Assembly (NCBI GenBank): GCA_002692065.1
Contig: NZJX01000011.1
Span: 115,555 to 179,554, forward strand
Source: Flavobacteriales bacterium
Lineage (GTDB): Bacteria > Bacteroidota > Bacteroidia > Flavobacteriales > UBA7430
Direction: 5' to 3'
Length of the DNA: 64,000 nt
Part shown: one piece after another, positions 38,448 through 58,191 of the stretch
How the letters are laid out: every line of letters starts with the position of its first letter
Numbering within the stretch: the first letter of the stretch is position 1
Made by a program: the position numbers and the translations under genes
Notes under the pieces: generated by a model
What the model was told of the DNA's origin: nothing
Seen by the model: the letters and a program-made list of their open reading frames with translations, nothing else
Databases searched by the model: none

Positions 38448-39179
38448 ATGAAAAAAAGCATATTAATTTTACTTTCCTTTTTTAGCTTAACCGTATTTTC
38501 TCAAACAACAGAACTTAGTAGTTATCAGAAAAAAACAATGAACACTGAGAGATTTGCGCGTGCAGTTAACACTGGTGCAAACCACACGTTATTAATTTTA
38601 GGTTCAGCCTGGAAAACATCTCCTGAGTTAGGAGACGAAATAGCTGTTTATGATTCCAATGGAAATATGGTTGGTTCTGTAGCCTGGGTCCCAGAACAAG
38701 AGGGTCATGCAGGAATTGCAATATGGGGAGATGACGAAACAACGCCTGAGAAGGAAGGAATGGTTAAAGGCGAAAAGTTTACAATTTTACTATTTGATAA
38801 GTCAGAAGATGAAATGTTTGAAGTCAAAATTGAAGAGTTTAAAACAGGAGAAGATATTTACGTGAAAGATGGCGTAACTGTTGTAGGGCAAGCTTCTATT
38901 ATTAAATCTCTCTCGCAAAAATTAGAATTGTTTCAAAACGCACCAAACCCTGTTCAAGAAAACACATCTATAAGCTTCTATATGCCTACTAAAGGAAAGG
39001 TGAAACTTTATTTGTCTAACTCATTAGGTCAAGAAGTTATGGTTCTTGCTGACACCACTTATGATAAGGGAACTCACAGTGTTCAAATGAGTGCCAAGTC
39101 TCTCTCAGCAGGAATTTATTTTTATAAAATTGAGGCAAATAATGTTACTCTAACAAAACAAATGACTCTTGTCAAATAA
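38448..39179 (+). CDS. Small secreted protein of unknown function with a canonical T9SS type-A C-terminal sorting domain
   Basis: Signal peptide MKKSILILLSFFSLTVFSQ. The last ~80 aa (NAPNPVQENTSISFYMP...LSAGIYFYKIEANNVTLTKQMTLVK) match the Por_Secre_tail pattern. I do not recognise the N-terminal ~150 aa. Confidence 0.6.
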   Translation: MKKSILILLSFFSLTVFSQTTELSSYQKKTMNTERFARAVNTGANHTLLILGSAWKTSPELGDEIAVYDSNGNMVGSVAWVPEQEGHAGIAIWGDDETTPEKEGMVKGEKFTILLFDKSEDEMFEVKIEEFKTGEDIYVKDGVTVVGQASIIKSLSQKLELFQNAPNPVQENTSISFYMPTKGKVKLYLSNSLGQEVMVLADTTYDKGTHSVQMSAKSLSAGIYFYKIEANNVTLTKQMTLVK

Positions 39180-39873
39180 ATTTATAAAACTGGCCGCTTC
39201 TTGCGGCTTTTTTTTTAATAAATACCTTATAAATCTTCTATTTATTTTTTTTACATGTAATTTATTCTCACAAGAAAATATTAAATTTCAAGCAACATTT
39301 AATAGCGAAGCCCTTAAATTAAATAAAAATTACAATTTAAATAAATATCATTTTAACATAAAGAAACTTAAGTTTTATGTTTCAAATATAAGTTATTATA
39401 ACAGAAAAAAACACCAAATATTCAGAGATGAAAAAGTTTATTTAGTTGATTTTAATAATCCTAAATCTTTAAAAATCAAGTCTCTAATAAACAAAAAGGT
39501 TCATTTACATTCTTTTGATTTAGGATTAGACAGTATTATAAATGTCAGCGGCTCGATGGGTGGCGCCTTAGACCCAATAGAGGGGATGTATTGGGCTTGG
39601 CAAAGTGGATATATTAATTTTAAGGTGGAGTGGGAAAGTAATATGTGCACAAATGATAATAATCAATTTATTTTTCATTTGGGGGGGTACAAAAAGCCGT
39701 ATTATAATAAAAGAACAGTTTTAGTCAAAAAAAGACACATAAATAAGTTAACATTTAACCTTAATAAGTTCCTTAAAAAAATAAGTTGTGGTAGACAAAC
39801 AATTATGAGTCCAAGCTTAAGAGGGGAAAATATTTCAAATTTAATTGTTAAATCATTTGAATTTAAAAAATGA
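39169..39873 (+). CDS. MbnP-like periplasmic/secreted protein (putative copper-binding partner of the downstream di-haem enzyme)
   Basis: Hydrophobic N-terminus. GALDPIEGMYWAWQSGYINFKVEW resembles the conserved M-W-W-x-GY-F-K-E core I recall for the MbnP family. ATGA-coupled to an MbnH/MauG-like di-haem peroxidase. The only canonical start is the TTG at 39169. Confidence 0.45.
   Translation: MSNKFIKLAASCGFFFNKYLINLLFIFFTCNLFSQENIKFQATFNSEALKLNKNYNLNKYHFNIKKLKFYVSNISYYNRKKHQIFRDEKVYLVDFNNPKSLKIKSLINKKVHLHSFDLGLDSIINVSGSMGGALDPIEGMYWAWQSGYINFKVEWESNMCTNDNNQFIFHLGGYKKPYYNKRTVLVKKRHINKLTFNLNKFLKKISCGRQTIMSPSLRGENISNLIVKSFEFKK
39192..39216 (+). terminator. Rho-independent terminator (GCCGC-TTCTT-GCGGC followed by T9)
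   Basis: A GC-rich 5-6 bp stem plus a 9-T run, 13 nt after the stop of the 38448 CDS. It stands out in this AT-rich DNA. Confidence 0.7.
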
Positions 39874-40853
39874 AAGTGTTGTTAAAATTAGGTTTATTTT
39901 ATGGAATAATTTATTTATTTATTGAGGAAAGCTATTTAAATTACCCAGAGTATTTTCCCAAAACTAAGTATGATTTTTCAAAAAATAATTTATCAAAAAC
40001 AAAAATTGAATTGGGAAGAATGTTGTTTTATGACCCTATATTATCAATAGATAGTACAATTTCGTGTGAAAGTTGCCATAGTCCATATAATGCTTTTTCA
40101 CACACGGATCATAGATTAAGCCACGGTATAAACGATAAAATTGGAAAAAGAAATGCTCCCCCATTATTTAATTTAGCCTGGAAATCTTCTTTCATGAGAG
40201 ACGGAGCCGTTAATCATTTAGATATGCAGTCATTAGTTCCGATAACTGATAGTTTAGAAATGGGAAACTCTTTAGGCAATCTACTTTATAAATTAAAAAA
40301 AAACCAAAAATATATTAATATGTTTTATGAAGCATTTGGCGACTCCACAATTAATTTAGATAGGGTATTAAAATCAATTTCACAGTTTGAGTTAACTTTA
40401 ATTTCGAAAAACTCAAAATATGACAGATTTAGACTAGGAGAAGATCACTTTTCAGATCAGGAAACCAGAGGGTATGAATTATTCAAAAAAAATTGTAGTA
40501 ATTGCCATGAGGAGCCAATGTTTACAAATTATAAGTTTGAAAATAATTCTTTGGAGATTAATCAAGTTTTATTAGACTCAGGAAGGTTTAGTATTACTAA
40601 AAACAGTAACGATTTTATGTCTTTTGAAGTTCCTTCACTTAGGAATTTATCTTATACTTACCCATATATGCACGACGGCAGGTTTTCAAATTTATTTGAA
40701 GTCTTGAAACATTATTCAGGGCCAAAATTTAATTATGTAAGTTTAACTGAAAAAGAAATAATAGACATAATATCTTTTTTATTAACTTTAAATGATAAGG
40801 AGTTTATATTAAACCCTGAAAATAAATTTCCTGTAAATAAACTTTTAAAATAA
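39870..40853 (+). CDS. Di-haem cytochrome c peroxidase family enzyme (MbnH/MauG-like)
   Basis: Two CxxCH haem motifs (SCESCHSP and CSNCHEEP). LGRMLFYDPILS and PSLRNLSYTYPYMHDG are typical of the CCP/MauG family. Confidence 0.8.
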   Translation: MKVLLKLGLFYGIIYLFIEESYLNYPEYFPKTKYDFSKNNLSKTKIELGRMLFYDPILSIDSTISCESCHSPYNAFSHTDHRLSHGINDKIGKRNAPPLFNLAWKSSFMRDGAVNHLDMQSLVPITDSLEMGNSLGNLLYKLKKNQKYINMFYEAFGDSTINLDRVLKSISQFELTLISKNSKYDRFRLGEDHFSDQETRGYELFKKNCSNCHEEPMFTNYKFENNSLEINQVLLDSGRFSITKNSNDFMSFEVPSLRNLSYTYPYMHDGRFSNLFEVLKHYSGPKFNYVSLTEKEIIDIISFLLTLNDKEFILNPENKFPVNKLLK

Positions 40854-42199
40854 TGAAAAAAATAACCTACATACTCTTACTAAACATCATAAATTGTTTT
40901 TCTCAACCAGAAATCTATTCTTGGCTTCAAAATACAGAAACAACCGGAAATTATTATATTGCCGGTTCTCCAGTATTAGTTCCAAATAATATTTTGGTTA
41001 ATTGTCAAAAGGTTCAGTTTTCCAATGATTATGTTTATGTGACAGCAACAGGGGTTCCTTCTTACCCAACAGGTCCTTTTCTTGACGGCAACCCGTCAAA
41101 CGCACAAAACCAAGCAGTGATTTTTAAAATTACTAGAAACCCACAGCAAAACTTGGATGATTTAACCTACACTACACCAGGAAATATAGGGGTTTTTATT
41201 AACGGAGTTGCGCTATTTGATTATAGAGATGGGGTTGCTTGGAACTCAAACACCAACCAACTGTGTGGCGGCCCTGGTAATCCACCATGTCCGGGTGGAT
41301 TTCTTGCAGAAATGGATTGGAATAGAGATGCAATTCTTGCAGAAATGGAAGGGTTTGATTGCGCAAAAGGACATCCAGCTATGGGAAACTATCATCACCA
41401 TCAAAATCCATCAGCGTTTAAACTAGATAGGTTTCTTGTTTCACATGTTTGTGATTTGTATGATTCAGAGGGGCTGTATGTAATCGATTCAACTGCTCAT
41501 TCCCCACTTTTGGGCTATGCTTTTGATGGTTTTCCTATTTATGGGGCATATGGATATCAAAATAATGACGGGTCTGGAGGTGTTGTTCGAATAGAATCAG
41601 GTTATAATTTAAGAAGTATAACAGAAAGAACTCACCATGCTGACGGAACAGATGTTGAGGATGGGCCAAGTATATCAGAATATTTTCTGGGGTATTTTAG
41701 AGAAGATTATGAATTTATAGACCAGGACGAAGATAAATATTTAGATGAGCATAATGGAAGACTCTGTGTAACGCCAGAGTATCCTGAAGGAACATATGCA
41801 TATTTTTGTACAGTAGATGAAAATTGGAATTCTAAATATCCATATGCTGTTGGGCCAACATTTTATGGCGAATATTCAAATAGTATGACAAATAATATTT
41901 TAGAACAAACAACCACCTATTATCAAACAAATTTAAATAATGAAAGTTTAACTGTGGGTTTTAACGCTTTCATCAACAAATCCTCAGAGTTAATAATTGT
42001 TCAATGCTTGGGATTGGTTAAAGAAAATACAAAGGTTAATGTTATAGATTTAAATGGAAAAATTTTAAAAAGCACACAGATTTTTCCTGGACAAACATTA
42101 GCAAGTATAGATTCACGAGCACTTTACAATGGATTATATATCATAGAAATAATTCAAAATAATAAAAGGCTTATCAAAAAATTAGCGATAAGTAGGTAG
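40853..42199 (+). CDS. YHYH-family protein with a T9SS-like C-terminal domain
   Basis: Signal peptide. FDCAKGHPAMGNYHHHQNP (YHYH-type motif) and LDEHNGRLCVTPEYPEGTYAYF (second family motif). C-terminal VNVIDLNGKIL...LYNGLYIIEI...KKLAISR. The start overlaps the upstream stop (TAATG). Confidence 0.65.
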   Translation: MKKITYILLLNIINCFSQPEIYSWLQNTETTGNYYIAGSPVLVPNNILVNCQKVQFSNDYVYVTATGVPSYPTGPFLDGNPSNAQNQAVIFKITRNPQQNLDDLTYTTPGNIGVFINGVALFDYRDGVAWNSNTNQLCGGPGNPPCPGGFLAEMDWNRDAILAEMEGFDCAKGHPAMGNYHHHQNPSAFKLDRFLVSHVCDLYDSEGLYVIDSTAHSPLLGYAFDGFPIYGAYGYQNNDGSGGVVRIESGYNLRSITERTHHADGTDVEDGPSISEYFLGYFREDYEFIDQDEDKYLDEHNGRLCVTPEYPEGTYAYFCTVDENWNSKYPYAVGPTFYGEYSNSMTNNILEQTTTYYQTNLNNESLTVGFNAFINKSSELIIVQCLGLVKENTKVNVIDLNGKILKSTQIFPGQTLASIDSRALYNGLYIIEIIQNNKRLIKKLAISR

Positions 42200-42206
42200 C
42201 CTACTT
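42190..42206. terminator. Short hairpin AAGTAGG-TAG-CCTACTT spanning the stops of two convergent genes
   Basis: 7-bp stem with a 3-nt loop, T-rich on the plus side. A possible weak bidirectional terminator. Confidence 0.3.
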
Positions 42207-43490
42207 TATTTTCTTTTTTGATGAACCATCATTATAAATAATAAAATGGATACCCCTATAATCTTTTATATTTAAAATTTCTTTTCCCAACACATCAATT
42301 ATTTTGTTAATAGAAAGATTTTTCTGATGGGTTTCGTTTAAGTTTAAATAGTAGCTATTGTTAGAGAGTTCTATAATTTCATTTGGCGGCTGGCTTGGCC
42401 AGCTATATCCACTTGTTGCAAGATATATTCTTCCATCCGGACTTACGCAAATATCACGCAATCTTCCCCACATATTATTAAAATATTCAGTTTGATTAAT
42501 AACACTTAGCCCGTCATCAGAGAAGTCAAACTTAACAAGCATTTTATTTTTTAACACAGTCATAAGTAGAGTATTTTGAAACTCAGGAATAGAAGGATGA
42601 TCATACCAAATAATATCAGAAGGAGCAATTGTTGGAGTCCAATTTACAAGGGGTTCTACTACATCATTTGCATTACAAAAGTTTGTTTCGTTGGGCGCAT
42701 CACAGAAGCCATGTACACTTGGCCACCCATAATTTCTGTTAGGCATAAGAATATTTAATTCATCATCATTTTGAGGCCCATGTTCAGAGCTATATACTAT
42801 TCCATTTGGAGCAAGCTCTAAACCTTGAGCATTTCTATGACCCCAAGAATAAACATAACTTGATGTGTCAGGATTATCCGAAGGGATACCTCCAAAATTG
42901 TCCTCTGAAACATCAACTCTTAAAATTTTTCCAGTAAGTTCAGATAAATTTTGAGATGAAGATTGATCTTGGGCATCGCCAGTTGAGATTAAAATGGTGT
43001 TGTCATCAAGAGCAAGAATCCTACACCCAACATGAGTGGTCCACCCATTAATGTTGTCAATAAGAATCTCTTCATTTTTGAGCTTGTCAAGAGTTTCATC
43101 GTAATTATATGAAACAAGGCGTTCTTTGATTTGGCCAGAACTAGTTGTGTATGTGTATACTAAAAATAGAATCTTATTGGAAGTAAAGCTTGGATGAAAT
43201 TCAAACCCAAGTAATCCTGCTTCACTATTTGTATAAGATGAGTAGGTTAAATCTTGAATGTCAAGAATAACTTTTTTTTCACCAGATTCAACATTTACTC
43301 TACTAACAATTCCAGGCCTTTCAGTCATCCAAATATATCCATCTGGGCCCCATTTAATCTCCCATGGAATGCTAAGGTTGTTAATTACCTCTCTGACATT
43401 TAGGGTCGTATTGCCGACATTAACAGTTTGAGAAACAACATAAAGATTCATTGAGAAAAAGCATAAAAATAATCTGAATGGAATTTGCAT
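42201..43490 (-). CDS. PQQ-dependent (soluble glucose/sorbosone dehydrogenase-type) beta-propeller dehydrogenase with a T9SS-like tail
   Basis: GLLGFEFHPSF, GKILRV...GIPSDNP, WGHRNAQGL...EHGPQNDDELNIL..NYGWP. Signal peptide. Short C-terminal IIDVLGKEIL...IIYNDG motif. Confidence 0.8.
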   Translation of the reverse strand: MQIPFRLFLCFFSMNLYVVSQTVNVGNTTLNVREVINNLSIPWEIKWGPDGYIWMTERPGIVSRVNVESGEKKVILDIQDLTYSSYTNSEAGLLGFEFHPSFTSNKILFLVYTYTTSSGQIKERLVSYNYDETLDKLKNEEILIDNINGWTTHVGCRILALDDNTILISTGDAQDQSSSQNLSELTGKILRVDVSEDNFGGIPSDNPDTSSYVYSWGHRNAQGLELAPNGIVYSSEHGPQNDDELNILMPNRNYGWPSVHGFCDAPNETNFCNANDVVEPLVNWTPTIAPSDIIWYDHPSIPEFQNTLLMTVLKNKMLVKFDFSDDGLSVINQTEYFNNMWGRLRDICVSPDGRIYLATSGYSWPSQPPNEIIELSNNSYYLNLNETHQKNLSINKIIDVLGKEILNIKDYRGIHFIIYNDGSSKKKIK

Positions 43491-43496
43491 AATTTT

Positions 43497-45551
43497 TTAT
43501 TTTGTGATTTTAATTTTTTTTGTTTTAGTTTCAATAATGTAAGTGCCTGATTCTAAATTCTCATAGCTAGAATAAACCTTTCTCCCTAATAAATCATATA
43601 TATTTAAAATTTGATTGCCATCGAAGGTTAACTCATCAATTGATACTGAACAATTGTCTGGAGAGACAATCACTTCAAGAGACTCCTCAGATTCGCATGA
43701 GGAAACAACCCAATCAACTTTCCAATTATAGAAAAAATAATAAAATCCATTTCCATACTCACTATCGTTAATGGAAATTATATTTTCAATAACATAAGGA
43801 TAATTGAAAGAGCTACCCCAACCCTCAGATCTACTTCTTTTAAGCATTGGGTTGGCAAAACCAAAATTTACTAGATTAGAATCGGTATTTGTGCCTATTT
43901 TATAGTTTTGTCCCTCATCAATATTCCAGTTAAGATTTAATGTGGCATCAGAGTTAATAAATACAGTTGTATCATGAATTATTTGGTTACTTTCATTTTT
44001 TAATTCAATGGTTCTGTTTCCTGAATACAAATTGTCAGTAAACACATCAATTGACTTTAGTATAAAGTCATCATTTGCATCAAATGTCATAAATCCATTA
44101 TACTCTTCACCGCTATATTCGGAATTTCCAGAATGATACTGTTCCCCAACATTGTCAGTTGAGAAGTTTTCAACAATTTGTTTGGCAAAAAGGTGTAATT
44201 CTTCTTCTAAAGATGGAACATAAAAGGGGGTTCCAACAAAAATTAATTCATCGTTTTCATTGTACCAAGTTACATTTTCTTCATTAAGCTCAATATAAAA
44301 AGGCTCACCAAGGCAAGCACTAGTTGGGTCGTAAAAAGAACTTAGAGTAGGAGGATCAGCATAAACTTTAAAAACGTTTGTTGGGGTAGACTCAACTATT
44401 TGATCACAGTTAGGATTTTCTACAGTAACACTGTAACTACCCTGTTCTGAAACACTAATACTTTGTGTTGTTTCGCCATTACTCCACAAATAACTATTAC
44501 CATAATTTGCAGTTAATTCGACACTTTCTCCTTCGCAAATTTCAATACTTCCTTGAATATCAATAGATGAAGTTCCATTGTTTTGTAGTGCTAAATTAAA
44601 CGGAATTGCCGAGTAATTATTATCAGAGTTTTCTTCCAAAAAATAATTGTTAGGATCAGCTATTCCTACAATCCAATACTCGCCATTACATATATTAGGG
44701 TCCAAATTAATCCACTGCTCTTCAAGCCATTCACCATAAAGATCGAGCCAACCTGAAGATATTCCTTGAACAACTTCTGAGCAACCGTAATTTCCCCCCC
44801 CTAGACCAAAGTTCGGAAAATCAACATTGTATAAAACTTCACCCTGTTGATATTGTGTGTTGTCGTCGCGGCAATGCCCTGTGTAATCGTCATTTGAGTA
44901 GGCGTCAATCGTATTATCAGGGCTACAGGTACCATAATCCATTAAGCAAAAACCAAGTTTTGCGCCATCAGACACAATTGGCCAGTTTCTTGGGTCTGGT
45001 TCATTTTCGTCCTTTATTCTTAGGGTAAAAACACCCCAATCATTTGTATGGTTATGCCCATGTGTAGGATGGTATGTCATACTCCCTGCTTGACGGTCGT
45101 AATGACTCATAGAGCCATCGCTATTTCTATGATAAATTCTTTGCCAAAGAATTTGTTCAGGATGACTTCCATCTGAACAGTAAAACTCTTCTTCAGAGGA
45201 GGGATCATATATTGATATTGTGTCGGTTATTCCGTCTTGATAACTACATATAAAAGTTCTGTATCCATCTGGTCCTGCACCTCTTACAGTAAGTGGTCCA
45301 TGACCAACATTAGGAGTGGAAACGCTGATACGTAATCGTCCGTTATTTTCCCCCTCTCCTGTTTGAGAATATTCAGTTGGCCCATTAGTTACGTTTTCAA
45401 GTCCAAACCAGGACACTTGAATATCAGGTAAAAGATCACAGTCGGTATCATTTGGATTTGCACATTGACAATCAGTAGCATCGTAGATAGTACATTGAGC
45501 AATTAAGTTAAAATTAAATATAAAAAGAAAGATGGATGTAATTTTGTACAT
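43497..45551 (-). CDS. Lysyl oxidase-like copper amine oxidase with Ig-like modules and a T9SS-like C-terminal domain
   Basis: Aligns by eye to the animal LOX catalytic domain. YHPTHGHNH matches WHSCHQHYH (Cu His triad; His164/166/168 at nt 45048-45062). GAKLGFCLMDYGTC matches GHKASFCLEDTSC (LTQ Lys198). QGISSGWLDLYGEWLEEQWINL matches [22 protein letters not shown] (LTQ Tyr272). Confidence 0.75.
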   Translation of the reverse strand: MYKITSIFLFIFNFNLIAQCTIYDATDCQCANPNDTDCDLLPDIQVSWFGLENVTNGPTEYSQTGEGENNGRLRISVSTPNVGHGPLTVRGAGPDGYRTFICSYQDGITDTISIYDPSSEEEFYCSDGSHPEQILWQRIYHRNSDGSMSHYDRQAGSMTYHPTHGHNHTNDWGVFTLRIKDENEPDPRNWPIVSDGAKLGFCLMDYGTCSPDNTIDAYSNDDYTGHCRDDNTQYQQGEVLYNVDFPNFGLGGGNYGCSEVVQGISSGWLDLYGEWLEEQWINLDPNICNGEYWIVGIADPNNYFLEENSDNNYSAIPFNLALQNNGTSSIDIQGSIEICEGESVELTANYGNSYLWSNGETTQSISVSEQGSYSVTVENPNCDQIVESTPTNVFKVYADPPTLSSFYDPTSACLGEPFYIELNEENVTWYNENDELIFVGTPFYVPSLEEELHLFAKQIVENFSTDNVGEQYHSGNSEYSGEEYNGFMTFDANDDFILKSIDVFTDNLYSGNRTIELKNESNQIIHDTTVFINSDATLNLNWNIDEGQNYKIGTNTDSNLVNFGFANPMLKRSRSEGWGSSFNYPYVIENIISINDSEYGNGFYYFFYNWKVDWVVSSCESEESLEVIVSPDNCSVSIDELTFDGNQILNIYDLLGRKVYSSYENLESGTYIIETKTKKIKITK

Positions 45552-45562
45552 AATAAATATAT

Positions 45563-45576
45563 TTTATGCAAAAATA
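45563..45576 (-). promoter_or_regulatory. -7 promoter box (minus-strand TATTTTTGCATAAA) for the LOX-like gene
   Basis: TAnnTTTG match 17 nt upstream of the ATG at 45551. It is the exact inverted copy of 45621-45634. Confidence 0.5.
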
Positions 45577-45620
45577 CGCAATAAGAATTTATAAATGACA
45601 AATAATATATTTTTTAATAT

Positions 45621-45634
45621 TATTTTTGCATAAA
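45621..45634 (+). promoter_or_regulatory. -7 promoter box TATTTTTGCATAAA for the deiminase-like gene
   Basis: TAnnTTTG match 19 nt upstream of the ATG at 45648. Confidence 0.5.
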
Positions 45635-45647
45635 TAAATCTTAATTT

Positions 45648-47633
45648 ATGAAGAGAGTAACTTTATTATTTTACGTTATAAATACCTGTTTATTTGCACA
45701 AACCCATTTACCCAAAGGGTTTCTTTCCAAGGAAAAGTTGATGATGGATAAATATTTAGAGTCATTCAATAATAAACTAACACCACCTCCTGCCTTTCCA
45801 GTGAGAACTATGGCAGAGTGGGAAGAAATAAAAGCATTAACATTAAGTTGGAATTCATACCCTGGAATATTAACTGAAATAATAAAACAAGCGGTTAGTG
45901 AAGTGGAAGTAATAATTTTTTGTGAAGATTCTAATTCAGTAAAAAACACCTTGTATTCCCAAAACATTGACTTAGAAAATGTAAATTTTATCCAAGAACC
46001 TACAAATTCAATATGGATAAGGGATTACGGACAACACACTGTTTACAAAGATGATGTTGGACAACAATATCTAGTAGATTGGATATACAACAGGCCCAGA
46101 CCGCTTGATGATGCTAGCCCTAATTTAGTTTCAAATTATTTTAATTATGATTTGTTTGCAACAAATTCAGGTGAGAATTTATTAGTAAATACAGGGGGTA
46201 ACTTTATGACAGATGGAATGGGTACGGCCTTTGCCTCTGAGTTAATTGTTGAAGAAAATGACGGTAGTGGGCCATATAATTCAGTGAATTATCCCAACCA
46301 TGATGAAAACGAAATAGATTCAATTATGAATTTATTTATGGGAATCAATAATTATATCAAAATGGAAACACTTCCATATGATGGGATTCATCATATTGAT
46401 ATGCATATGAAAATCATCAACGAAGAAACAATTTTAGTTTCAGAGTATCCACCCGGAGAATCAGATGGCCCTCAAATTGAGGAAAATATTAATTATATTT
46501 TAGATAATTATTTCACTCCTTATGGTAATCAATATAAAATAGTCAGAATACCATCCCCTCCTAGCACCAGTGGAAATTACCCAGCAGATGGAGGATATTA
46601 CAGAACGTATACAAATTCAGTTTTTATTAATAAAAAAATTTTAGTTCCATTTTATAGAGAAGAGTTTGATACCATTGCACAAAGAATTTATGAAGAAATA
46701 TTACCTGGCTACGAGGTTGTAGGAATTGACTGCGATGACTCTAACGATAATATAATCGCTGCAAGCGGAGCAATTCACTGTATAACAAAGGCAGTTGGGG
46801 TTGATTCTCCGCTTTTAATAAATCATGCACCTAAAAGAGATATGGGATATAAGTCTATAATTAATTTTCAAGCTAAAACAAATCATTTTTCAGGAATAGA
46901 TTTCGTACAATTACATTACAAAAAAGAAAGTGATCTAAATTATACGATTAAAAACATGGTTCATTTAAATGATGATGTTTTTTCTCTCGATGTTTTTGGT
47001 TTGCCTGCAAATGAAAAAATATCTTATTTTTTCAAGGCGAGAGCTAATTCAGGAAAAGAAATCAATAGACCAATTGTCGCTCCAATTGGAGGATTTGAGT
47101 TTACAATGTTTTCTGACCTTCCAAATAGTCAGATAATTTATTTAAAAGAAGGGTGGAACTTAATTTCCTCGTATATTTATAAAAATGATGATATTCAAAA
47201 TATCTTTGCAGACGTGTCTTCAAATATTTCTATTATAAAAAATAATTTAGGAGAAGTCTATTTACCAGATTTTTCTTTCAACTCTATTCAAAGTTACGAT
47301 CTTTTAGATGCATATTATGTTAAGATGAAAGCAGAAGATTCCTTATTAATAAGTGGAGCCATATTTTTGCCTGAAGAGTGGCCCCTGATTCTTCCCGAAG
47401 GCTGGTCATTAGTATCTTATTTAAGGTATGAACCTAATCTAGTTAATTTAGTTTTTAATAACTTGACTGAATCAGACAATTTAATTATTGTTAAAGATTA
47501 TTTTGGGCAAATGTATTTACCTCAATTTAATTTTAATGCAATAGGAGAAATGGAGCCTGGACAAGGTTATCAAATTAAAATTTCGCATCCGGACACTTTA
47601 CAATACCTACCCTTTAACCAATATTATGAATAA
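45648..47633 (+). CDS. Secreted Porphyromonas-type peptidyl-arginine deiminase / agmatine deiminase family protein with a C-terminal tandem-repeat extension
   Basis: Signal peptide. SIWIRDYGQ, NTGGNFMTDGMGT, GIHHIDMHM and GAIHCITK (catalytic Cys378, nt 46779-46781) match the PAD_porph/AguA pattern. Two ~75-aa repeats occupy aa 497-570 and 578-652. Confidence 0.8.
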   Translation: MKRVTLLFYVINTCLFAQTHLPKGFLSKEKLMMDKYLESFNNKLTPPPAFPVRTMAEWEEIKALTLSWNSYPGILTEIIKQAVSEVEVIIFCEDSNSVKNTLYSQNIDLENVNFIQEPTNSIWIRDYGQHTVYKDDVGQQYLVDWIYNRPRPLDDASPNLVSNYFNYDLFATNSGENLLVNTGGNFMTDGMGTAFASELIVEENDGSGPYNSVNYPNHDENEIDSIMNLFMGINNYIKMETLPYDGIHHIDMHMKIINEETILVSEYPPGESDGPQIEENINYILDNYFTPYGNQYKIVRIPSPPSTSGNYPADGGYYRTYTNSVFINKKILVPFYREEFDTIAQRIYEEILPGYEVVGIDCDDSNDNIIAASGAIHCITKAVGVDSPLLINHAPKRDMGYKSIINFQAKTNHFSGIDFVQLHYKKESDLNYTIKNMVHLNDDVFSLDVFGLPANEKISYFFKARANSGKEINRPIVAPIGGFEFTMFSDLPNSQIIYLKEGWNLISSYIYKNDDIQNIFADVSSNISIIKNNLGEVYLPDFSFNSIQSYDLLDAYYVKMKAEDSLLISGAIFLPEEWPLILPEGWSLVSYLRYEPNLVNLVFNNLTESDNLIIVKDYFGQMYLPQFNFNAIGEMEPGQGYQIKISHPDTLQYLPFNQYYE

Positions 47634-47666: not shown

Positions 47667-49991
47667 ATGGAAAATTTAAAATTTAATAAAAATAACAATA
47701 AATTTGCAATTAATTGGGCAAAGCTAATTATTAAAAATAGATTTTTAGTTTTAATTTTAACGCTTCTTATCACAGGATTTTTGGCAATAAACACAAAAAT
47801 GGAGTTTGAAGGAGACTATCATGCTTTTTTTAAAGGAACTAATCCAGAATTACTTGCCTTTGATGCCTTGCAAGAAAAATATACAAAAGATGATTTAATT
47901 CTAATAGCTCTTGCCCCAAAAAACAAGAATATATTTACCATAGAAAATCTAAATGCTGTAGAGTTTTTGACTAACAAATCTTGGAATGTTCCATTCTCGT
48001 CTAGAGTAAATTCTCTTACAAATTATCAACATACTAGAGCTGTTGGTGATGACCTATATGTTGAGGACCTTTGTTATAATGCTATTGGAAAAAATGAAGA
48101 TGAAATTAATCAAATAAAAAAAATTGCGTTAAAAGAGACACAGCTTGTTGACAGAGTAATTAACAAAGAAGGGACAGTGACAGCAATTTCAATAACATTA
48201 AAAATGCCTGATGGCAACGAAACACAAGATGTTGTGGATTTGATGGAGTATTACGATAATATGATCTTAAATTTCAAAAAAGAATTCCCAAATTTTGACG
48301 TCTACACTACTGGTAATATGCCATTAAGTTATTCTTTTTATCAACATTCTGTTAAAGATTTAGGTCTAGTCGCAGTGATGGTTTTGGTTGTAATGATAGT
48401 AACAGGTATATTGACCAGAAATATTTTCGCATTAATTTCAACTTTCTTTGTTTATTTGTTTTCTTTACTTTCAACTACGGGTTTTATAGGCTTGATGGGT
48501 ATAAAGTTAACAGGCCCCTCTGCAATTTTTCCTACAGTTATTTTAACATTAGCAGTAGCTGACAGTATTCATATCCTAGTAACTTATCTCCAAAAATTAA
48601 GAACAGAAGATTATGCTAAGAATGATGCACTTATTGAAAGTATGAGGTTAAATTTTATGCCTGTTTTCATCACAAGTTTGACAACAACAATTGGGTTTTT
48701 AACTTTAAATTTTTCAGAGGTCCCTCCATTTAATGATTTGGGCAATATTGTTGCCTTTGGAATGACAATGGCGTTCTTATTCTCTACTACATTATTACCA
48801 GCTTTAATGAGTATTTTTCCATATTGGAAGAAAGATAACACAAAAGAAAGACAAATTAGTGCTTGGTATACAAATTTTGCAAACTGGGTTGTAGCCCACC
48901 CTAAAAAGCTAACTGTCATCTCAATTTTTATAATAGCTGTTTTGGGATACATTTCTTCGTTTAACATAATTAATGACGAATATGTTGAGTACTTTGATGA
49001 ATCAGTTGAGTTTAGAGTTCATAGTGATTACGTAAATGATAATCTTACAGGGTTTTACAACATAGAATTTTCCATATCTAGTGGTGAGAGTGGAGGAATT
49101 AGCAACCCTTCTTATTTAAGAAAACTTGATGATTTCAAAAAATGGTTTGAAAAACAACCACATGTTGTCCATGTTAGAAGTTACAGTGAAGTTACAACAA
49201 GATTAAATAAATCTATGCATGGTGATGATGAATCATTCTTAAAAATACCAGAAACACGAGAAGAAGCTGCCCAATATTTACTTTTATACGAACTATCTTT
49301 ACCATTTGGGTTAGACTTAAATAATCAAATCAATGTTGACAAGTCAGAAACAAGATTTACAGCAATTTTGGAAAACACTTCTTCACGAGAAATTATTAAA
49401 TTATCTAATGAAGCTGAAAAATGGTTAAAAAATAATACTGAAAATCACATGCACGCTATTGCTGCAGGAATACCTTTAATGTTTGCAAATTTGGGGTTTC
49501 GACAAGCAAATGCAATGTTTAAGGGGAATATCTTGGCTCTATTAATTATCTCATTTATTTTAATTATAGCTTTAAGAAGTTTAAGGTTAGGCCTGCTAAG
49601 TATTATACCAAACGTAACACCCATTTTAGTTGGTTTTGGTTTTTGGGCAATATATAAGGGAACGATAAATGTAGGAATGGTTGTTGTTTTTGGAATGACT
49701 ATGGGGATTATTGTTGATGATACTGTTCACTTTATGAGTAAATTTTTGAGAGCAAAAAGAGAATATGGATATGATACAAAAAAAGCCGTCATTTACAGTT
49801 TTGAAACTGTAGGTAGGGCGCTTGTAATAACAACGGTAGTGCTCCTCATAGGTTTTGGGATTTTGGCAACATCAGCATTTGCAATTAATAGTCATATGGC
49901 AAGAATAACACTGGTCATCATTCTCTCTGCGTTAATAATTGATTTTATACTGCTACCTTCACTCTTAATACTAATTTCTAAAGAAAAATAA
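47667..49991 (+). CDS. RND-superfamily exporter of the COG1033/MMPL/HpnN type (two 6-TM sterol-sensing-like bundles)
   Basis: 774 aa. Repeated TM bundles, each followed by a large periplasmic loop. TLAVADSIHIL and GIIVDDTVHFM are the duplicated signature motifs. Confidence 0.8.
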   Translation: MENLKFNKNNNKFAINWAKLIIKNRFLVLILTLLITGFLAINTKMEFEGDYHAFFKGTNPELLAFDALQEKYTKDDLILIALAPKNKNIFTIENLNAVEFLTNKSWNVPFSSRVNSLTNYQHTRAVGDDLYVEDLCYNAIGKNEDEINQIKKIALKETQLVDRVINKEGTVTAISITLKMPDGNETQDVVDLMEYYDNMILNFKKEFPNFDVYTTGNMPLSYSFYQHSVKDLGLVAVMVLVVMIVTGILTRNIFALISTFFVYLFSLLSTTGFIGLMGIKLTGPSAIFPTVILTLAVADSIHILVTYLQKLRTEDYAKNDALIESMRLNFMPVFITSLTTTIGFLTLNFSEVPPFNDLGNIVAFGMTMAFLFSTTLLPALMSIFPYWKKDNTKERQISAWYTNFANWVVAHPKKLTVISIFIIAVLGYISSFNIINDEYVEYFDESVEFRVHSDYVNDNLTGFYNIEFSISSGESGGISNPSYLRKLDDFKKWFEKQPHVVHVRSYSEVTTRLNKSMHGDDESFLKIPETREEAAQYLLLYELSLPFGLDLNNQINVDKSETRFTAILENTSSREIIKLSNEAEKWLKNNTENHMHAIAAGIPLMFANLGFRQANAMFKGNILALLIISFILIIALRSLRLGLLSIIPNVTPILVGFGFWAIYKGTINVGMVVVFGMTMGIIVDDTVHFMSKFLRAKREYGYDTKKAVIYSFETVGRALVITTVVLLIGFGILATSAFAINSHMARITLVIILSALIIDFILLPSLLILISKEK

Positions 49992-49992
49992 T

Positions 49993-50763
49993 ATGAAAAA
50001 AATCATTGTAATACTTTTATTAATTCAAACGTTAAATTTATTTGCCCAATCTAATGAAAAGTTAGGTTTTGAAATTGCTCAAAAAGCAGTTTTAATGGAC
50101 CAAGGATTTAAAAGTCTATCAACAAAATTAAAAATGACATTAAAAAATAGAAATGGACAAACTAGTGAAAGGTTGTTAGAAAACAAAATATTAGAACAAG
50201 TCGAAGACGGAGATTTTTCATTAATAATATTTAATACCCCTAAAGATGTTAAAGGTACAGCAACTTTGACTTATACTCATAAAATCGGCCCAGATGATCA
50301 GTGGCTGTTTCTTCCAGCAGTTAATAGAGTGAAAAGAATATCCTCAAGCAATAAGTCAGGACCATTTATGGGGAGCGAATTTTCTTTTGAAGATCTTGCT
50401 TCTGCAGAGCTAGAGAAGTATTCCTATAAATTCATTTCGGAAAAAGATGACTTTAAAATCGTTGAAGCCTACCCTGTAGATGAAAAATCAGGATATAGTA
50501 AAAGAATAGTTTATTATAACTCAAAAAAAAATTACAGGGTTGAAAAAGTAGAGTTTTATGACAGAAAAGGTGATCATTTGAAAACACTTCGTTATGAAAA
50601 GTTTAATTTATATAAAGAAAAATTTTGGAGGGCAGATGTGTTTACAATGAAAAACCATCAAACTAACAAAGAAACAGTATTGGAGTTTAGTGATTGGAAT
50701 TTTGATGCAAATTTTTCAAGAGATGACTTTACTCAAGAAGCTCTCAAAAAAGCTGGAAATTAA
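49993..50763 (+). CDS. LolA-like 'outer membrane lipoprotein-sorting' family periplasmic protein
   Basis: Signal peptide. DDQWLFLPAVNRVKRIS and GPFMGSEFSFEDL are, from memory, hallmark motifs of the LolA_like family that pairs with COG1033 exporters. Lies 1 nt after the RND stop. Confidence 0.7.
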   Translation: MKKIIVILLLIQTLNLFAQSNEKLGFEIAQKAVLMDQGFKSLSTKLKMTLKNRNGQTSERLLENKILEQVEDGDFSLIIFNTPKDVKGTATLTYTHKIGPDDQWLFLPAVNRVKRISSSNKSGPFMGSEFSFEDLASAELEKYSYKFISEKDDFKIVEAYPVDEKSGYSKRIVYYNSKKNYRVEKVEFYDRKGDHLKTLRYEKFNLYKEKFWRADVFTMKNHQTNKETVLEFSDWNFDANFSRDDFTQEALKKAGN

Positions 50764-51939
50764 ATGACTAAGTACAAAATAAATTTATTTTTAGCTGTAG
50801 TTTTTCATGTAAAATTAATATCTCAAAATTTTAATTTTGATTCTGACATAAAAATCTCTGAAGAATTTAGGTATTTTTTTAATGAACCTTCTTTTCAGGG
50901 GCAAGAAGATTTTTTTCCATCATATTCCCTTACTCCCAAATTTAATATAAAATTTAAAGAAAATAATATTATTTTCAGAGGGTTTTTTAGACATGATAAA
51001 GATATTAGAAGAACACATGTCGATTTAAGAGAGTTTTATTATCAAACTTCGATTTCACAATATGATTTTTCAATTGGATATCACCAGATTTTTTGGGGTG
51101 TAGCTGAAAGTAATAATTTAGTTGATATTATAAATCAAAACGATGCAGTCGAATCGCCCTTTGGTAATGATAAGCTAGGACAACCATTATCCAAGTTCAC
51201 ATATTCATCAAAAAATACAGGAGTTTTTAGTTTTTTTTTAATGCCATTTCACAGAAAGATAGTTTTTCCTGGAAAGAAGTCAAGATTTAGATTTCCATTA
51301 GTTTTGAACAGGAATTTTATAAAGTATGAAGAAAATAATAAAAAATTAAAAAAAGATTTTGCTTTTAGGTGGAGCCATTATTTTGACATAGTTGATATTG
51401 GATTAAGTTATTTCAACGGTAATGGTCGTGAACCAATTTTTAATCGCAACACTTTTATGGCTTTTTATCCTATGATCAGTCAATTTGGCTTGGACTTACA
51501 ACTAACATTTGAAACATTCTTATTTAAGTTTGAAGGAATTAAAAGAACTGCAGATGTTCAAAGTTTTTACGCTCAAGTTGTCGGCTTAGAATATACACTT
51601 AACAATGTAAATGGTAACGGTTTAGATATTGGAATGATTTCAGAATATTCGTATGATGATAGAGGTGCTTTAGCCGTTAACTCTCTTCAAAATGATGTTT
51701 TTTTTGGTACGCGTTTTAATTGGAATGATTTTAGTGGGACAAGTTTATTAGTAGGATTATTGTCTGATATTAAATATAATTCACAGTCTTTTAGTTGTGA
51801 CTTTTCAAGAAGGTTTAAAGAAGTGTATAAGATAAATTTAGAATTCCAATATTTTTTAAATATTGATTCAAGAGAGCTTCTATTACCATTTTTTATTAAT
51901 GATCATTTCTTTAAAATTGAATTATCACAATTTTTTTAA
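50764..51939 (+). CDS. Putative outer-membrane beta-barrel protein, family unknown
   Basis: N-terminal hydrophobic segment, alternating amphipathic strands, aromatic C-terminus ...KIELSQFF. Its ATG abuts the upstream stop. Confidence 0.4.
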   Translation: MTKYKINLFLAVVFHVKLISQNFNFDSDIKISEEFRYFFNEPSFQGQEDFFPSYSLTPKFNIKFKENNIIFRGFFRHDKDIRRTHVDLREFYYQTSISQYDFSIGYHQIFWGVAESNNLVDIINQNDAVESPFGNDKLGQPLSKFTYSSKNTGVFSFFLMPFHRKIVFPGKKSRFRFPLVLNRNFIKYEENNKKLKKDFAFRWSHYFDIVDIGLSYFNGNGREPIFNRNTFMAFYPMISQFGLDLQLTFETFLFKFEGIKRTADVQSFYAQVVGLEYTLNNVNGNGLDIGMISEYSYDDRGALAVNSLQNDVFFGTRFNWNDFSGTSLLVGLLSDIKYNSQSFSCDFSRRFKEVYKINLEFQYFLNIDSRELLLPFFINDHFFKIELSQFF

Positions 51940-51945
51940 ATTGTG

Positions 51946-52632
51946 TTATTTTTGTCTTTTTTCTAATAAGATTTCAGTAAAATAGTTTAGTATTTTTTCA
52001 ACCTCTGAAACATCTTCCCCCTTTTTTGAAATTTCATTTAAGCTTGGAATGTGTCGGGCAAAATAAACTTGATTGTTGGACATTTCAAATAGGTTTGAGG
52101 CTAAAGCATTTGGATATTTGAAAGTAGGATTGATCTCTTTAATAATTTTGGAGACATAATTGACCAATGAAATATAACTGCTAAAAAATCCTTTTGAATT
52201 TTCATCATCTACCATCTTTGTGTGGTAGGCCTTACCTCCTTCAGAAATAACAATATTATGTAAAGCACTTTCATTAATAAACTCTGTGGAAGGGTTTTCT
52301 TTTTGTGCATGGAGAAAAGAGTGTAATATAATTTTTAATTTTATACTTGGAGCAGAAACATTTTTTGTATTAAATATTATTAGATAATTGACCCACTCCC
52401 AATACCAATTAAATAGGTATAGAAGCAAAATATGTTTATTTTTAAAGTATCTATAGATAGAAGCCTCAGTAGAATGAATTTCTTCAGCAAGTTTTTTAAA
52501 TGTAAAATCTTCAAAACCATTCTTGTCAATCAAAATAATACTGAGTTTGAGTATTTTTTTTCCTAGGGTTGAGTTTTGTGGCTCTTTTAAATATAACCCT
52601 TCGTTAACTGAAATCTTAATAGCAACACTCAT
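51946..52632 (-). CDS. TetR/AcrR family transcriptional regulator
   Basis: N-terminal HTH: FEDFTFKKLAEEIHSTEASIYRYFKNKHILLLYL. Confidence 0.8.
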   Translation of the reverse strand: MSVAIKISVNEGLYLKEPQNSTLGKKILKLSIILIDKNGFEDFTFKKLAEEIHSTEASIYRYFKNKHILLLYLFNWYWEWVNYLIIFNTKNVSAPSIKLKIILHSFLHAQKENPSTEFINESALHNIVISEGGKAYHTKMVDDENSKGFFSSYISLVNYVSKIIKEINPTFKYPNALASNLFEMSNNQVYFARHIPSLNEISKKGEDVSEVEKILNYFTEILLEKRQK

Positions 52633-56004: not shown

Positions 56005-57747
56005 ATGAAAAAATTATTATTATTATTATTTATACCAACAGTTATTTTTGCTCAAACCTCGCACGAGGTTGAGGTTGGAGGATTTTATTATTCACCACAA
56101 GAATTAAATATCAATATTGGTGATACTGTAAATTGGACTAATGTAGGTGGCAACCACAACGTTAATTTTGATGTTAATTCTTTAACCGGAATATCTTTTG
56201 GTAACCCTGTTTATTTAGTAGATCAATCACTTCCTGTTTCAGGTGTAGGTTTCATGGGCTCAATTGTATTTAGCGAAGCAGGAACTTTCAACTATGACTG
56301 TTCTGTAGGATATCATGCTGCTAATGGACAGACAGGAACAGTAGTTGTGCTTGAAACTTCCAATACAGTAGTGGATATTGTAGTAGGTTCAGAAACACAT
56401 ACAACACTTGAAGCAGCTGTAACAGCTGCTGGTTTAGTTGAAACTTTATCTGGTGAAGGCCCCTTTACAATATTTGCCCCAACGGATGATGCATTTGCTG
56501 CATTACCTGAAGGGACGTTAGAAACCTTATTATCTGACCCTACTGGAGATTTAACAAATATTTTATTGAATCATGTATATTCGGGTCAAGCAATGTCTAC
56601 AGATTTGAGTGATGGAATGATGGTCAGCACTCTTTATGGAGACAGCTTAATGGTTACGATTGACTCAACAGGTGTTTATTTTAATAATGCAATGGTTACA
56701 GTCGCAGATCTGAGTGCAGACAACGGAGTTGTTCATGTAATTGATGCAATTTTATTACCATCTCCACCACCTCCATCAAATACAGTTTATGATGTTGTAT
56801 CTAATTCTGATATTCATTCAACACTTAGTCAAGCAATTTCTTTAGCTGGTTTTGTTGATTTCTTGTCAAGTGACCAGTATACATTTACATTGTTTGCTCC
56901 AACAGATGCCGCATTTTCTGTCTTTGGAGAATCAGATTTAGCTGCTATTTTAACCGATTTAGAGTATTTACAATCAGTTTTAAAATACCATTTAGTTGAT
57001 GGTGTTTTATATTCTTCAGACTTATCTGATCAAATGGTTATTTCTTCATATCAAGGAGACTTAGAAGTTACTTTTGTTGATGATATGGTATATATTAATG
57101 AAGCACTAGTTACAGTTGTAGATATTGTTGCAGATAATGGAATTGTCCATGTAATTGATGCTGTGCTAGTTCCTGAAGAAGCACCACTAACTGTAGCAGA
57201 TATCATTAGTTATTCTGAAAATCACTCCACTTTGAAAACAGCTCTTAACGCCTCTGGTTTGAATGAAACTTTAATGAGTGAAGGGCCATTTACTGTATTT
57301 GCCCCAACAGATGACGCTTTTGCACAACTTCCTGATGGCACATTAGACTTGCTATTATCGGATCCTACAGGTCAATTGACAAACATTTTATTAAATCATG
57401 TACATTCTGGTAATGTTCTTTCAACAGATTTAAGTGATCAAATGGTGATTCCAACTTTGAACAACTATCAATTGACAGTAAATATTGATGAGGTTATGAT
57501 GACAGTTATGGTTGATAATGCATTAGTTACAGAGGCGGATTTATTAGCCTCTAATGGAGTTGTTCACGTAGTAAATTCTATTTTACTCCCCCCAGATTTA
57601 GATATAAAAGAATCAAACTTTATTAACAAAGATATTTACCTTTACTCTGTAAATATTTTAGGTGAGAAAATTGATAGAAATCTGTCAAATCAAATAGTTT
57701 TTGATGTCTATTCATCTGGAAGAGTAATTAAAAGATTTAAAAATTAA
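56005..57747 (+). CDS. Secreted cupredoxin (plastocyanin/azurin-like) domain fused to three fasciclin (FAS1) domains and a T9SS-like tail
   Basis: Signal peptide. Cupredoxin ligand pattern GGNHNVNFD (His51) ... YDCSVGYHAANGQ (Cys99, His104, Gln109). Three repeats of FT(I/L/V)FAPTD(D/A)AF...NILLNHV...NG(V/I)VHVID typical of FAS1. C-terminal VNILGEKI...VYSSGRVIKRFKN. Confidence 0.75.
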   Translation: MKKLLLLLFIPTVIFAQTSHEVEVGGFYYSPQELNINIGDTVNWTNVGGNHNVNFDVNSLTGISFGNPVYLVDQSLPVSGVGFMGSIVFSEAGTFNYDCSVGYHAANGQTGTVVVLETSNTVVDIVVGSETHTTLEAAVTAAGLVETLSGEGPFTIFAPTDDAFAALPEGTLETLLSDPTGDLTNILLNHVYSGQAMSTDLSDGMMVSTLYGDSLMVTIDSTGVYFNNAMVTVADLSADNGVVHVIDAILLPSPPPPSNTVYDVVSNSDIHSTLSQAISLAGFVDFLSSDQYTFTLFAPTDAAFSVFGESDLAAILTDLEYLQSVLKYHLVDGVLYSSDLSDQMVISSYQGDLEVTFVDDMVYINEALVTVVDIVADNGIVHVIDAVLVPEEAPLTVADIISYSENHSTLKTALNASGLNETLMSEGPFTVFAPTDDAFAQLPDGTLDLLLSDPTGQLTNILLNHVHSGNVLSTDLSDQMVIPTLNNYQLTVNIDEVMMTVMVDNALVTEADLLASNGVVHVVNSILLPPDLDIKESNFINKDIYLYSVNILGEKIDRNLSNQIVFDVYSSGRVIKRFKN

Positions 57748-58174: not shown

Positions 58175-58191
58175 AAACTTATCTGTACAAG

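Follow-up and report, generated by a model that had tools for sequence, protein, structure and literature searches.

Seven genes for apparently exported proteins follow one another at positions 38448-47633 of a 64,000-nucleotide stretch of DNA, here termed the window, from a Flavobacteriales bacterium (GTDB lineage UBA7430; GenBank assembly GCA_002692065.1, contig NZJX01000011.1, forward-strand positions 115,555 to 179,554), and the question that this locus raises is whether the seven constitute a system or merely a neighborhood. The original prediction, made from the letters and translations of the window, had taken them for one dedicated system that modifies amines or proteins outside the cell and handles copper. 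Comparison with related genomes leads to a different answer. Three independent units, brought together in this lineage only, make up the block, and just one of them is a conserved functional module, formed by the genes for an MbnP-family protein, an MbnH/MauG-like di-haem enzyme and a YHYH protein; outside this MbnP-MbnH-YHYH trio, the genes are neighbors by chance. The trio had not been singled out by the original prediction, which described the YHYH protein as being of 'unknown function'. Its conservation provides a clue both to the orphan MbnP-MbnH (MbnPH) pairs and to the function of the YHYH domain.

The conservation of the trio was established in a YHYH-anchored survey that took one genome per GTDB species and comprised 80 loci, each on its own contig and flanked by at most 10 kb on either side, the open reading frames (ORFs) of which were derived from six-frame translation and searched with the window proteins by phmmer (E <= 1e-5). 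Genes for MbnP, MbnH and YHYH succeed each other in this order and on one strand in 54 of the 80 loci. In four further loci MbnH precedes YHYH and the contig ends short of MbnP, another three (L016, L030 and L064) present MbnH followed by YHYH with no MbnP detected, and in three more the MbnPH pair is adjacent in a different arrangement. With seven uninformative loci left out, 64 of the 73 informative species (88%) have MbnH or MbnPH as the neighbor of YHYH. The loci span the Flavobacteriales, Crocinitomicaceae, Saprospiraceae, Lewinellaceae, Chitinophagales, Kapaibacteria and Ignavibacteria, together with one metagenome-assembled genome labelled Lentimonas, and tandem YHYH duplicates occur in four of the loci surveyed (L004, L049, L073 and L076). 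The median gap between MbnP and MbnH is -4 nucleotides (an ATGA overlap; 54 related loci), and that between MbnH and YHYH is 39 nucleotides, with 54 of 61 gaps measuring 100 nucleotides or less. MbnP-MbnH-YHYH is, then, a strongly conserved and tightly spaced operon, of which YHYH is the third gene. In the literature searched, YHYH (PF14240) is tied neither to MbnPH nor to copper, a prediction derived from jumbo phages being the one relevant find; the MbnP paper of Manesis et al. 2021 reportedly included a gene-neighborhood analysis, in which the link to YHYH may already appear.

The first member of the trio, MbnP (39169..39873, + strand), matches PF20243 with 122 bits (cut-off 27) and is a predicted kynurenine-dependent copper binder. 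Its motif Y141-W142-A-W144 lies within a GMYWxWxSGY consensus, in which W142 and W144 are invariant across 15 relatives of 31-37% identity; in the same relatives, H170 (FHLGG) is invariant and M213 (IMSP) nearly so. In Methylosinus, the first Trp of the WxW motif is converted to kynurenine by MbnH, a conversion that is required for copper binding, and the characterized MbnP binds Cu(I) through a His, a Met and solvent (PMC11951088). By comparison with these proteins, W142, H170 and M213 would be the kynurenine and copper-site residues of the window protein. The MbnPH pairing is known to reach far beyond methanobactin producers (PMC3621798). According to the published view, the pairs found beyond methanotrophs possibly fulfil diverse roles in copper homeostasis. 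The window MbnP bears no sorting tail for the type IX secretion system (T9SS), and a search of the PDB with its single sequence matched no chain.

The gene for MbnH (39870..40853, + strand) overlaps that of MbnP by 4 nucleotides in the window, as is typical of the family. Its product matches CCP_MauG with 170 bits, the best NCBIfam model being TIGR04039 (the MbnH family) with 188 bits, and against the PDB it is about equally close to ordinary peroxidases (130 bits) and to the MbnH of 6E1C (114 bits). Column counts were made over 64 sequences, corresponding to the window protein and 63 relatives. Both CxxCH motifs (C66-H70 and C209-H213) are invariant in 64/64 sequences, and Tyr282, a Tyr in 63/64, falls, in an alignment to the Paracoccus peroxidase 2C1U, on the Met of its 'VKIMSS' segment, the axial haem ligand of that peroxidase. 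MauG ligates its six-coordinate haem through His and, as the distal ligand, Tyr in place of Met, and the conserved Tyr282 fits MauG-type His/Tyr ligation in MbnH. At the inter-haem position, Trp is found in 51 of the 64 sequences (FMWDG in most relatives), Arg in 10, including the window protein, and His in 3. The 12 of the 63 other MbnH sequences in which Arg or His replaces this Trp belong to scattered lineages (L016, L018, L019, L024, L029-L031, L034, L050, L073 and L077).

The third member, a YHYH protein of 448 amino acids (40853..42199, + strand), combines a signal peptide, a YHYH metallo-domain (PF14240, 185 bits) and a T9SS type A tail, and belongs to a group here termed type 1. Residues D169, H174, H182, H216 and D225 are invariant in 139 sequences of types 1 and 2 (about 22% identical), in agreement with the 'triad of histidines and an aspartate' described for the domain, whose predicted function as a Zn-dependent hydrolase was derived from phage-tail fusions (PMC7824862). 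The protein thus carries a predicted His3/Asp metal site. Type-1 orthologues show 55-63% identity across the Bacteroidota loci sampled, none in the GTDB species set exceeding 63% identity to the window protein, and they keep the T9SS tail; His, Cys, Trp and Tyr are invariant at dozens of their positions. The YHYH family as a whole comprises 2,148 clusters at 50% identity (E <= 1e-3), and members are known from eukaryotes and phages as well as bacteria. When the PDB was searched with the YHYH protein, both as a sequence and as a profile, T9SS tails were the only matches.

Clustering of all the ORFs of the 80 YHYH loci brought to light further conserved families upstream of MbnP. These are an extracytoplasmic function (ECF) sigma factor (Sigma70_r2/r4_2; TIGR02937, 108 bits) and a family labelled c5, made up of membrane-anchored, helical proteins of about 155 amino acids with two L..xQ motifs and His/Pro-rich ends, which show a weak, sub-threshold match to Metal_resist (E = 0.0024) and none to NCBIfam. 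In the loci inspected, an ORF of about 80-95 amino acids with a single transmembrane segment, a putative anti-sigma factor, lies between the two. Both the ECF sigma factor and c5 are present in 25 of the 46 MbnP-MbnH-YHYH loci with at least 1.5 kb of upstream sequence; loci with the whole upstream trio include L002, L012 (L012:2023-3382), L014, L017, L021 and L023. The arrangement resembles the three-component layout of ECF sigma factor, anti-sigma factor and periplasmic metal sensor that we take to characterize CnrYXH-type modules, although the c5 match to Metal_resist remains below threshold and the module is absent from the window, where tblastn detected no homologue of the ECF sigma factor or c5, nor of the type-2 YHYH proteins and T9SS sulfatases considered below. 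Such an ECF sigma/transmembrane/CpxP-CnrX-like module suggests that the operon is induced by an envelope signal, probably metal. A separate upstream arrangement is seen in Owenweeksia (L001:6894-8228), in which MbnP is preceded by two thioredoxin-fold lipoproteins, one of them with a long His-rich stretch (HHHEGHHPEDGD...); these proteins are not conserved elsewhere and may be copper or redox accessory proteins.

In view of this conservation, we favor some direct functional coupling between MbnPH and YHYH, to which we assign a probability of roughly 0.55. The coupling can be envisaged in three steps. MbnH, as a MauG-like enzyme, would use peroxide to oxidize W142 in the WxW motif of MbnP to kynurenine, a step that is established for the Methylosinus proteins (PMC11951088) and that can be presumed by analogy for those of the window. 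This modification would then enable MbnP, in the periplasm, to bind Cu(I) with high affinity at a site to which His170 and Met213 are expected to contribute. Finally, MbnP would supply or buffer metal for the His3/Asp site of YHYH in the periplasm, with T9SS export taking place afterwards. Cargo of the T9SS is generally considered to reach its folded state in the periplasm, ahead of export, and hence MbnP would most likely meet YHYH, with metal, in this compartment. Judging from the conservation of the operon alone, metal supply or buffering would be the most likely service rendered by MbnPH to YHYH. A more ambitious proposal can be built on this basis, namely that type-1 YHYH proteins are unrecognized secreted copper enzymes, or carriers of a cofactor installed by MbnH, which need MbnP and MbnH before T9SS export, and that this holds across the Bacteroidota under metal-sensing ECF control. 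We put this forward tentatively, as a proposal that is more apt to prove wrong than right. If true, it would provide the first physiological client for the orphan MbnPH pairs and the first chemistry for YHYH. The operon occurs in cultured bacteria, such as Aquimarina addita (JCM 17106), Neolewinella persica (DSM 23188) and N. agarilytica, which makes both the MbnPH and the YHYH questions testable.

A number of results weigh against a direct coupling of MbnPH and YHYH. Both partners of the pair fall below the cut-offs of their equivalog models, MbnP scoring 45 bits on TIGR04052 (cut-off 140) and the 188 bits of MbnH on TIGR04039 comparing with a cut-off of 363, and the MbnP profile finds no PDB chain at E <= 10, which includes 7L6G if this entry is in the PDB copy searched. 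The window MbnH possesses Arg110 at the position of the inter-haem Trp, a residue held in MauG to mediate haem-to-haem charge resonance. AlphaFold2 modelling of YHYH with alignments of 10 and 139 sequences yielded mean pLDDT (predicted local distance difference test) values of 36 and 46, respectively, and unusable models. Moreover, the usual partner of type-2 YHYH is DUF6702, not MbnPH. These proteins of about 325 amino acids, apparently lipoproteins and 65-75% identical across the Flavobacteriaceae, the Lewinellaceae and Bernardetia, are directly followed by DUF6702 (PF20420) in all three genomes checked (L091-L093, with the YHYH gene at 8001 to about 8990; Bernardetia, Mariniflexile and Cellulophaga), and in Lewinella and Neolewinella type-2 YHYH sits between MbnP and MbnH.

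The remaining points of this kind speak at the same time for the alternative that survives best. It states that YHYH, as a Zn-dependent enzyme, hydrolyzes a glycan, a sulfated polymer or a peptidoglycan-like substrate independently of any chemistry of MbnPH, and that it only shares with MbnPH an envelope-stress or metal regulon under an ECF sigma factor. The sole published prediction for YHYH, drawn from the phage-tail fusions (PMC7824862), is indeed that of a Zn-dependent hydrolase and not of a copper protein. In 9 of the 73 species, each with at least 2.2 kb of upstream sequence, YHYH occurs without MbnPH within 10 kb. Among 17 multidomain YHYH representatives, two are fused to Sulfatase+SGSH_C (P0373 and P0392) and one to an arylsulfotransferase (P0360), the remainder being fused to cohesin/dockerin or to adhesin repeats (Calx-beta, SprB or Ig), and a Rosetta-stone search identified fusions to MbnP or MbnH in 0 of the 17. 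A T9SS sulfatase adjoins the operon in 8 of the 80 loci (L019, L020, L029, L030, L042, L052, L069 and L077), once between MbnH and YHYH. Fusions and neighbors of this kind, with sulfatases and an arylsulfotransferase, speak less for copper handling than for a chemistry of glycans or sulfate esters. These links favor a glycan or sulfate-ester substrate for YHYH, which would be compatible with any of the readings considered here. Shared regulation alone, on the other hand, can hardly account for an adjacency of 88% across several Bacteroidota orders, with fixed order and short gaps, and the trio persists even though roughly every second locus lacks the regulatory module. We regard an unrelated hydrolase in a common regulon as improbable, albeit deserving of serious consideration.

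A second alternative maintains a role for MbnH and shifts its target. YHYH would itself be the substrate of MbnH, which would install an oxidized Trp or Tyr or a cross-link before export, as MauG does with methylamine dehydrogenase, and MbnP would be an accessory or a second substrate. The adjacency of MbnH and YHYH is as tight as that of MbnP and MbnH, and the three loci mentioned above present MbnH followed by YHYH in the apparent absence of MbnP. The alignment of 10 type-1 YHYH sequences displays many invariant Trp, Tyr and His residues close to the metal motif, and enzymes of the MauG family oxidize their partner proteins remotely (PMC11951088). Nonetheless, MbnP is kept in nearly all complete loci. 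Type-2 and phage YHYH occur without MbnH, which indicates that the YHYH domain in general does not depend on MbnH. Modification of YHYH by MbnH is in our judgement a rather poor prospect.

The coupling of MbnPH and YHYH through metal can be set against several described systems. In the methanobactin and orphan MbnPH loci (Methylosinus trichosporium OB3b; TIGR04052/TIGR04039, GenProp0940), a WxW MbnP is likewise encoded directly upstream of a MauG-like enzyme with a 4-nucleotide overlap. Here, however, there are no methanobactin genes, no MbnT-like TonB-dependent transporter is among the families recurrent beside the operon, and a T9SS-secreted YHYH is fixed as the downstream third gene. The regulator, where present, is the trio of ECF sigma factor, transmembrane protein and CpxP-like protein instead of MbnI/MbnR, and scores lie well under the equivalog cut-offs, with the inter-haem Trp changed to Arg in this genome. 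The maturation of the methylamine dehydrogenase precursor by MauG in tryptophan tryptophylquinone biogenesis offers a second parallel: a di-haem enzyme with Tyr at the position of the Met ligand of cytochrome c peroxidases is encoded beside its expected target, the side chains of which are converted into a cofactor for redox chemistry or metal binding. The window MbnH differs in scoring 156 bits on TIGR03791 (cut-off 444), in the lack of methylamine dehydrogenase subunits and in that the only target proposed is the Trp of MbnP. For MopE and CorA of Methylococcus and Methylomicrobium, kynurenine-copper proteins that are secreted or located at the surface, the gene of a MauG-like peroxidase lies beside that of the copper-binding protein, and the system is in part located at the surface or outside the cell (PMC3621798). 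In the present operon, by contrast, the exported part is a separate T9SS YHYH protein of an unrelated sequence family, and MbnP is devoid of a sorting tail.

That all seven genes form one extracellular system, bringing together Lys-to-allysine and Arg-to-citrulline conversion, Trp oxidation and copper handling at the cell surface, is very hard to sustain, for although all the products look exported, the family assignments are right, the lysyl oxidase (LOX)-like enzyme and MbnP are copper proteins and the gene order is stable on contigs of the same population, the genes are divided into three transcription units on alternating strands, the peptidyl-arginine deiminase (PAD) and LOX genes are absent near MbnPH-YHYH in 80 species, 84 LOX loci lack MbnP, MbnH and the PAD catalytic domain, with YHYH near one of them (L090), and the arrangement is already missing where the LOX-like gene is 69-77% identical.

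The evidence for this verdict comes from the layout of the block and from both surveys. The seven ORFs succeed one another in +/-/+ strand blocks and constitute three transcription units, not one. The first, on the + strand, comprises a small orphan gene, MbnP, MbnH and YHYH, with overlapping stop and start codons; the second, on the - strand, is formed by the LOX-like gene and, after a 6-nucleotide gap, a glucose/sorbosone dehydrogenase (GSDH) gene; the third consists of the PAD gene on the + strand, with an MMPL transporter gene 33 nucleotides downstream. In the YHYH-anchored survey, the LOX catalytic domain and PAD are found near YHYH in 0 of 80 loci, and GSDH in only two (L037 and L039). 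A LOX-anchored survey was composed of 80 metagenome loci with a LOX-like domain and four contig look-ups, 84 loci in all, and none of these contains MbnP, MbnH or the PAD catalytic domain within 10 kb of the LOX-like gene. The flanks examined on two long contigs (L087 and L098; 214 kb and 216 kb) are likewise free of MbnP, MbnH, YHYH and the PAD catalytic domain. Metagenomes, several of them marine and TARA Oceans among these, contributed 18 contigs that encode exact copies of the LOX-like protein, and six of these contigs have the same gene order as the window where they overlap. The full seven-gene order was observed solely on contigs of the window's own population, and since the 18 contigs represent one population they carry no comparative weight. 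As a set of seven, the homologues thus show no conserved linkage in either survey, which is the outcome that the original prediction itself had named as refuting it; where it asked for three or more families co-localizing elsewhere, only MbnP, MbnH and YHYH do so, PAD and LOX never and GSDH in 2 of 80 loci. A neat row of thematically alike exported enzymes in a single genome, in other words, can be a recent juxtaposition and not a system.

Much of the original description of the individual genes nevertheless holds. The seven consecutive ORFs are located as described, inspection of the N-termini shows a signal-peptide-like segment in each of the seven proteins, and searches with Pfam and NCBIfam hidden Markov models confirmed all seven family assignments. 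Copper and redox-cofactor chemistry applies to part of the block, but not to the block as a whole. The claim that at least four or five proteins end in T9SS tails proved too generous. Two of the seven pass the type A tail model (TIGR04183 / PF18962), the orphan with 44 bits and YHYH with 27-29.5 bits; the C-terminus of the LOX-like protein reaches 18 bits, below the cut-off of 23, and those of GSDH and PAD give no match to the model. The LOX-like and PAD proteins are credible exported enzymes, and nothing was found that links them to each other or to MbnPH-YHYH.

The gene for the LOX-like enzyme (43497..45551, - strand) matches PF01186 with 24 bits (cut-off 20.4), and its product is organized as a catalytic domain at about residues 40-320, followed by some 360 amino acids of domains without a family and by the short, sub-threshold T9SS-like tail; no Pfam family was matched by the middle region. 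A profile built from relatives of this protein found human LOXL2 (5ZE3) with E = 6e-10, aligning YHPTHGHNH with WHDCHRHYH, GAKLGFCLMD with GHKASFCLED and GWLDLY with GCWDMY. In this alignment, H161/H164/H166/H168, K198 and Y272 represent the retained copper histidines (HxHxH) and the Lys and Tyr that form lysine tyrosylquinone (LTQ), as had been proposed for this enzyme, and the weak Lysyl_oxidase match is genuine. The window protein has the copper-binding motif and both LTQ residues of LOXL2 in common with animal and bacterial lysyl oxidases, from which it differs by its approximately 360 additional residues; the architecture of a catalytic domain plus about 300 amino acids is widespread in environmental Bacteroidota. 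The adjoining gene (42201..43490, - strand) encodes an exported member of the soluble glucose/sorbosone dehydrogenase family, of pyrroloquinoline quinone type (PF07995, 245 bits). Among the 84 LOX loci, a GSDH gene comes after LOX solely where the LOX-like proteins are 69% identical or more (L087, 77%; L095-L097, about 75%; L098, 69%), and about 70 more distant LOX loci contain none of the other six families, so that the LOX-GSDH pair is confined to a narrow clade. A larger unit composed of LOX, GSDH and PAD was considered and rejected, PAD being on the opposite strand and absent from every LOX locus. In one locus (L090:8001-12808), a LOX-like gene of 47% identity lies 2.6 kb from a T9SS YHYH gene on the opposite strand, with no MbnPH; this proximity, the only other case seen, is probably due to chance.

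The third unit encodes a peptidyl-arginine deiminase (45648..47633, + strand) that matches PF04371 (PAD_porph) with 125 bits and possesses catalytic and immunoglobulin (Ig)-like domains at residues 45-490, followed by a repeated C-terminal domain of about 170 amino acids for which no Pfam family was matched. Its best PDB match, with 141 bits over residues 45-490, is the Porphyromonas gingivalis enzyme PPAD (4YT9), other entries of the PAD_porph family, including agmatine deiminases, scoring 60 bits or less. PPAD has a Cys/His/Asp active site and two Arg residues that bind the C-terminal carboxylate of the substrate. The window protein keeps the equivalents of R152, R154, H236, D238 and C351, and its IRDY, IYNRPRPLDD, IHHID and AIHCIT segments align with the PPAD motifs, which places it close to PPAD and apart from typical agmatine deiminases. 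It shares with PPAD the catalytic and Ig-like domains, the active site and the two Arg, and differs in having no recognizable T9SS tail and in its extra C-terminal repeats. The PAD catalytic domain is present in 0 of 80 YHYH loci and 0 of 84 LOX loci within their flanks. Downstream, at 47667-52632, lie genes for an MMPL/RND-type transporter, a LolA-like (TP_0789-like) protein and a 391-amino acid protein without a family, followed by a divergent TetR gene, and the PPAD-like deiminase is accordingly a stand-alone unit beside an MMPL transporter operon. A PPAD-type enzyme in a free-living marine flavobacterium is perhaps of interest in itself.

The orphan gene that precedes MbnP (38448..39179, + strand) encodes a small T9SS cargo protein of 243 amino acids, with a signal peptide, an N-terminal domain of about 140 amino acids that matched no Pfam family and a type A sorting tail (Por_Secre_tail, 44 bits). 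Its place at the head of the + strand unit is peculiar to this lineage, as homologues upstream of MbnP were found in 0 of the 80 related loci, and it has no detectable relationship to the C-terminus of PAD. Directly after its stop codon, inside the 5' end of the MbnP ORF called from a TTG at 39169, a hairpin (GGCCGC-TTCTT-GCGGCT) followed by a run of nine T occupies positions 39192..39218 (+ strand). This structure, strong and G+C-rich against a genome background of 29% G+C, looks like a terminator or attenuator, and downstream of it the MbnP frame contains no ATG, GTG or TTG start. It may act as an attenuator or be a site of processing, by which the expression of the orphan relative to that of MbnP would be set. 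A scan for sigma-70 promoters was uninformative, with 46 sites found and 54 expected under a model that does not cover Bacteroidota promoters.

The window as a whole is about 29% G+C, and the nearest relatives of its proteins are found in the Flavobacteriales and other Bacteroidota. The left flank of the block is of housekeeping nature, with hemB, hemL, Nfu and the flavodoxin that had been noted as its boundary, and the wider region on the right contains, as originally listed, a cupredoxin (cupredoxin-fasciclin) gene at 56005 and tRNA-Phe at 58191.

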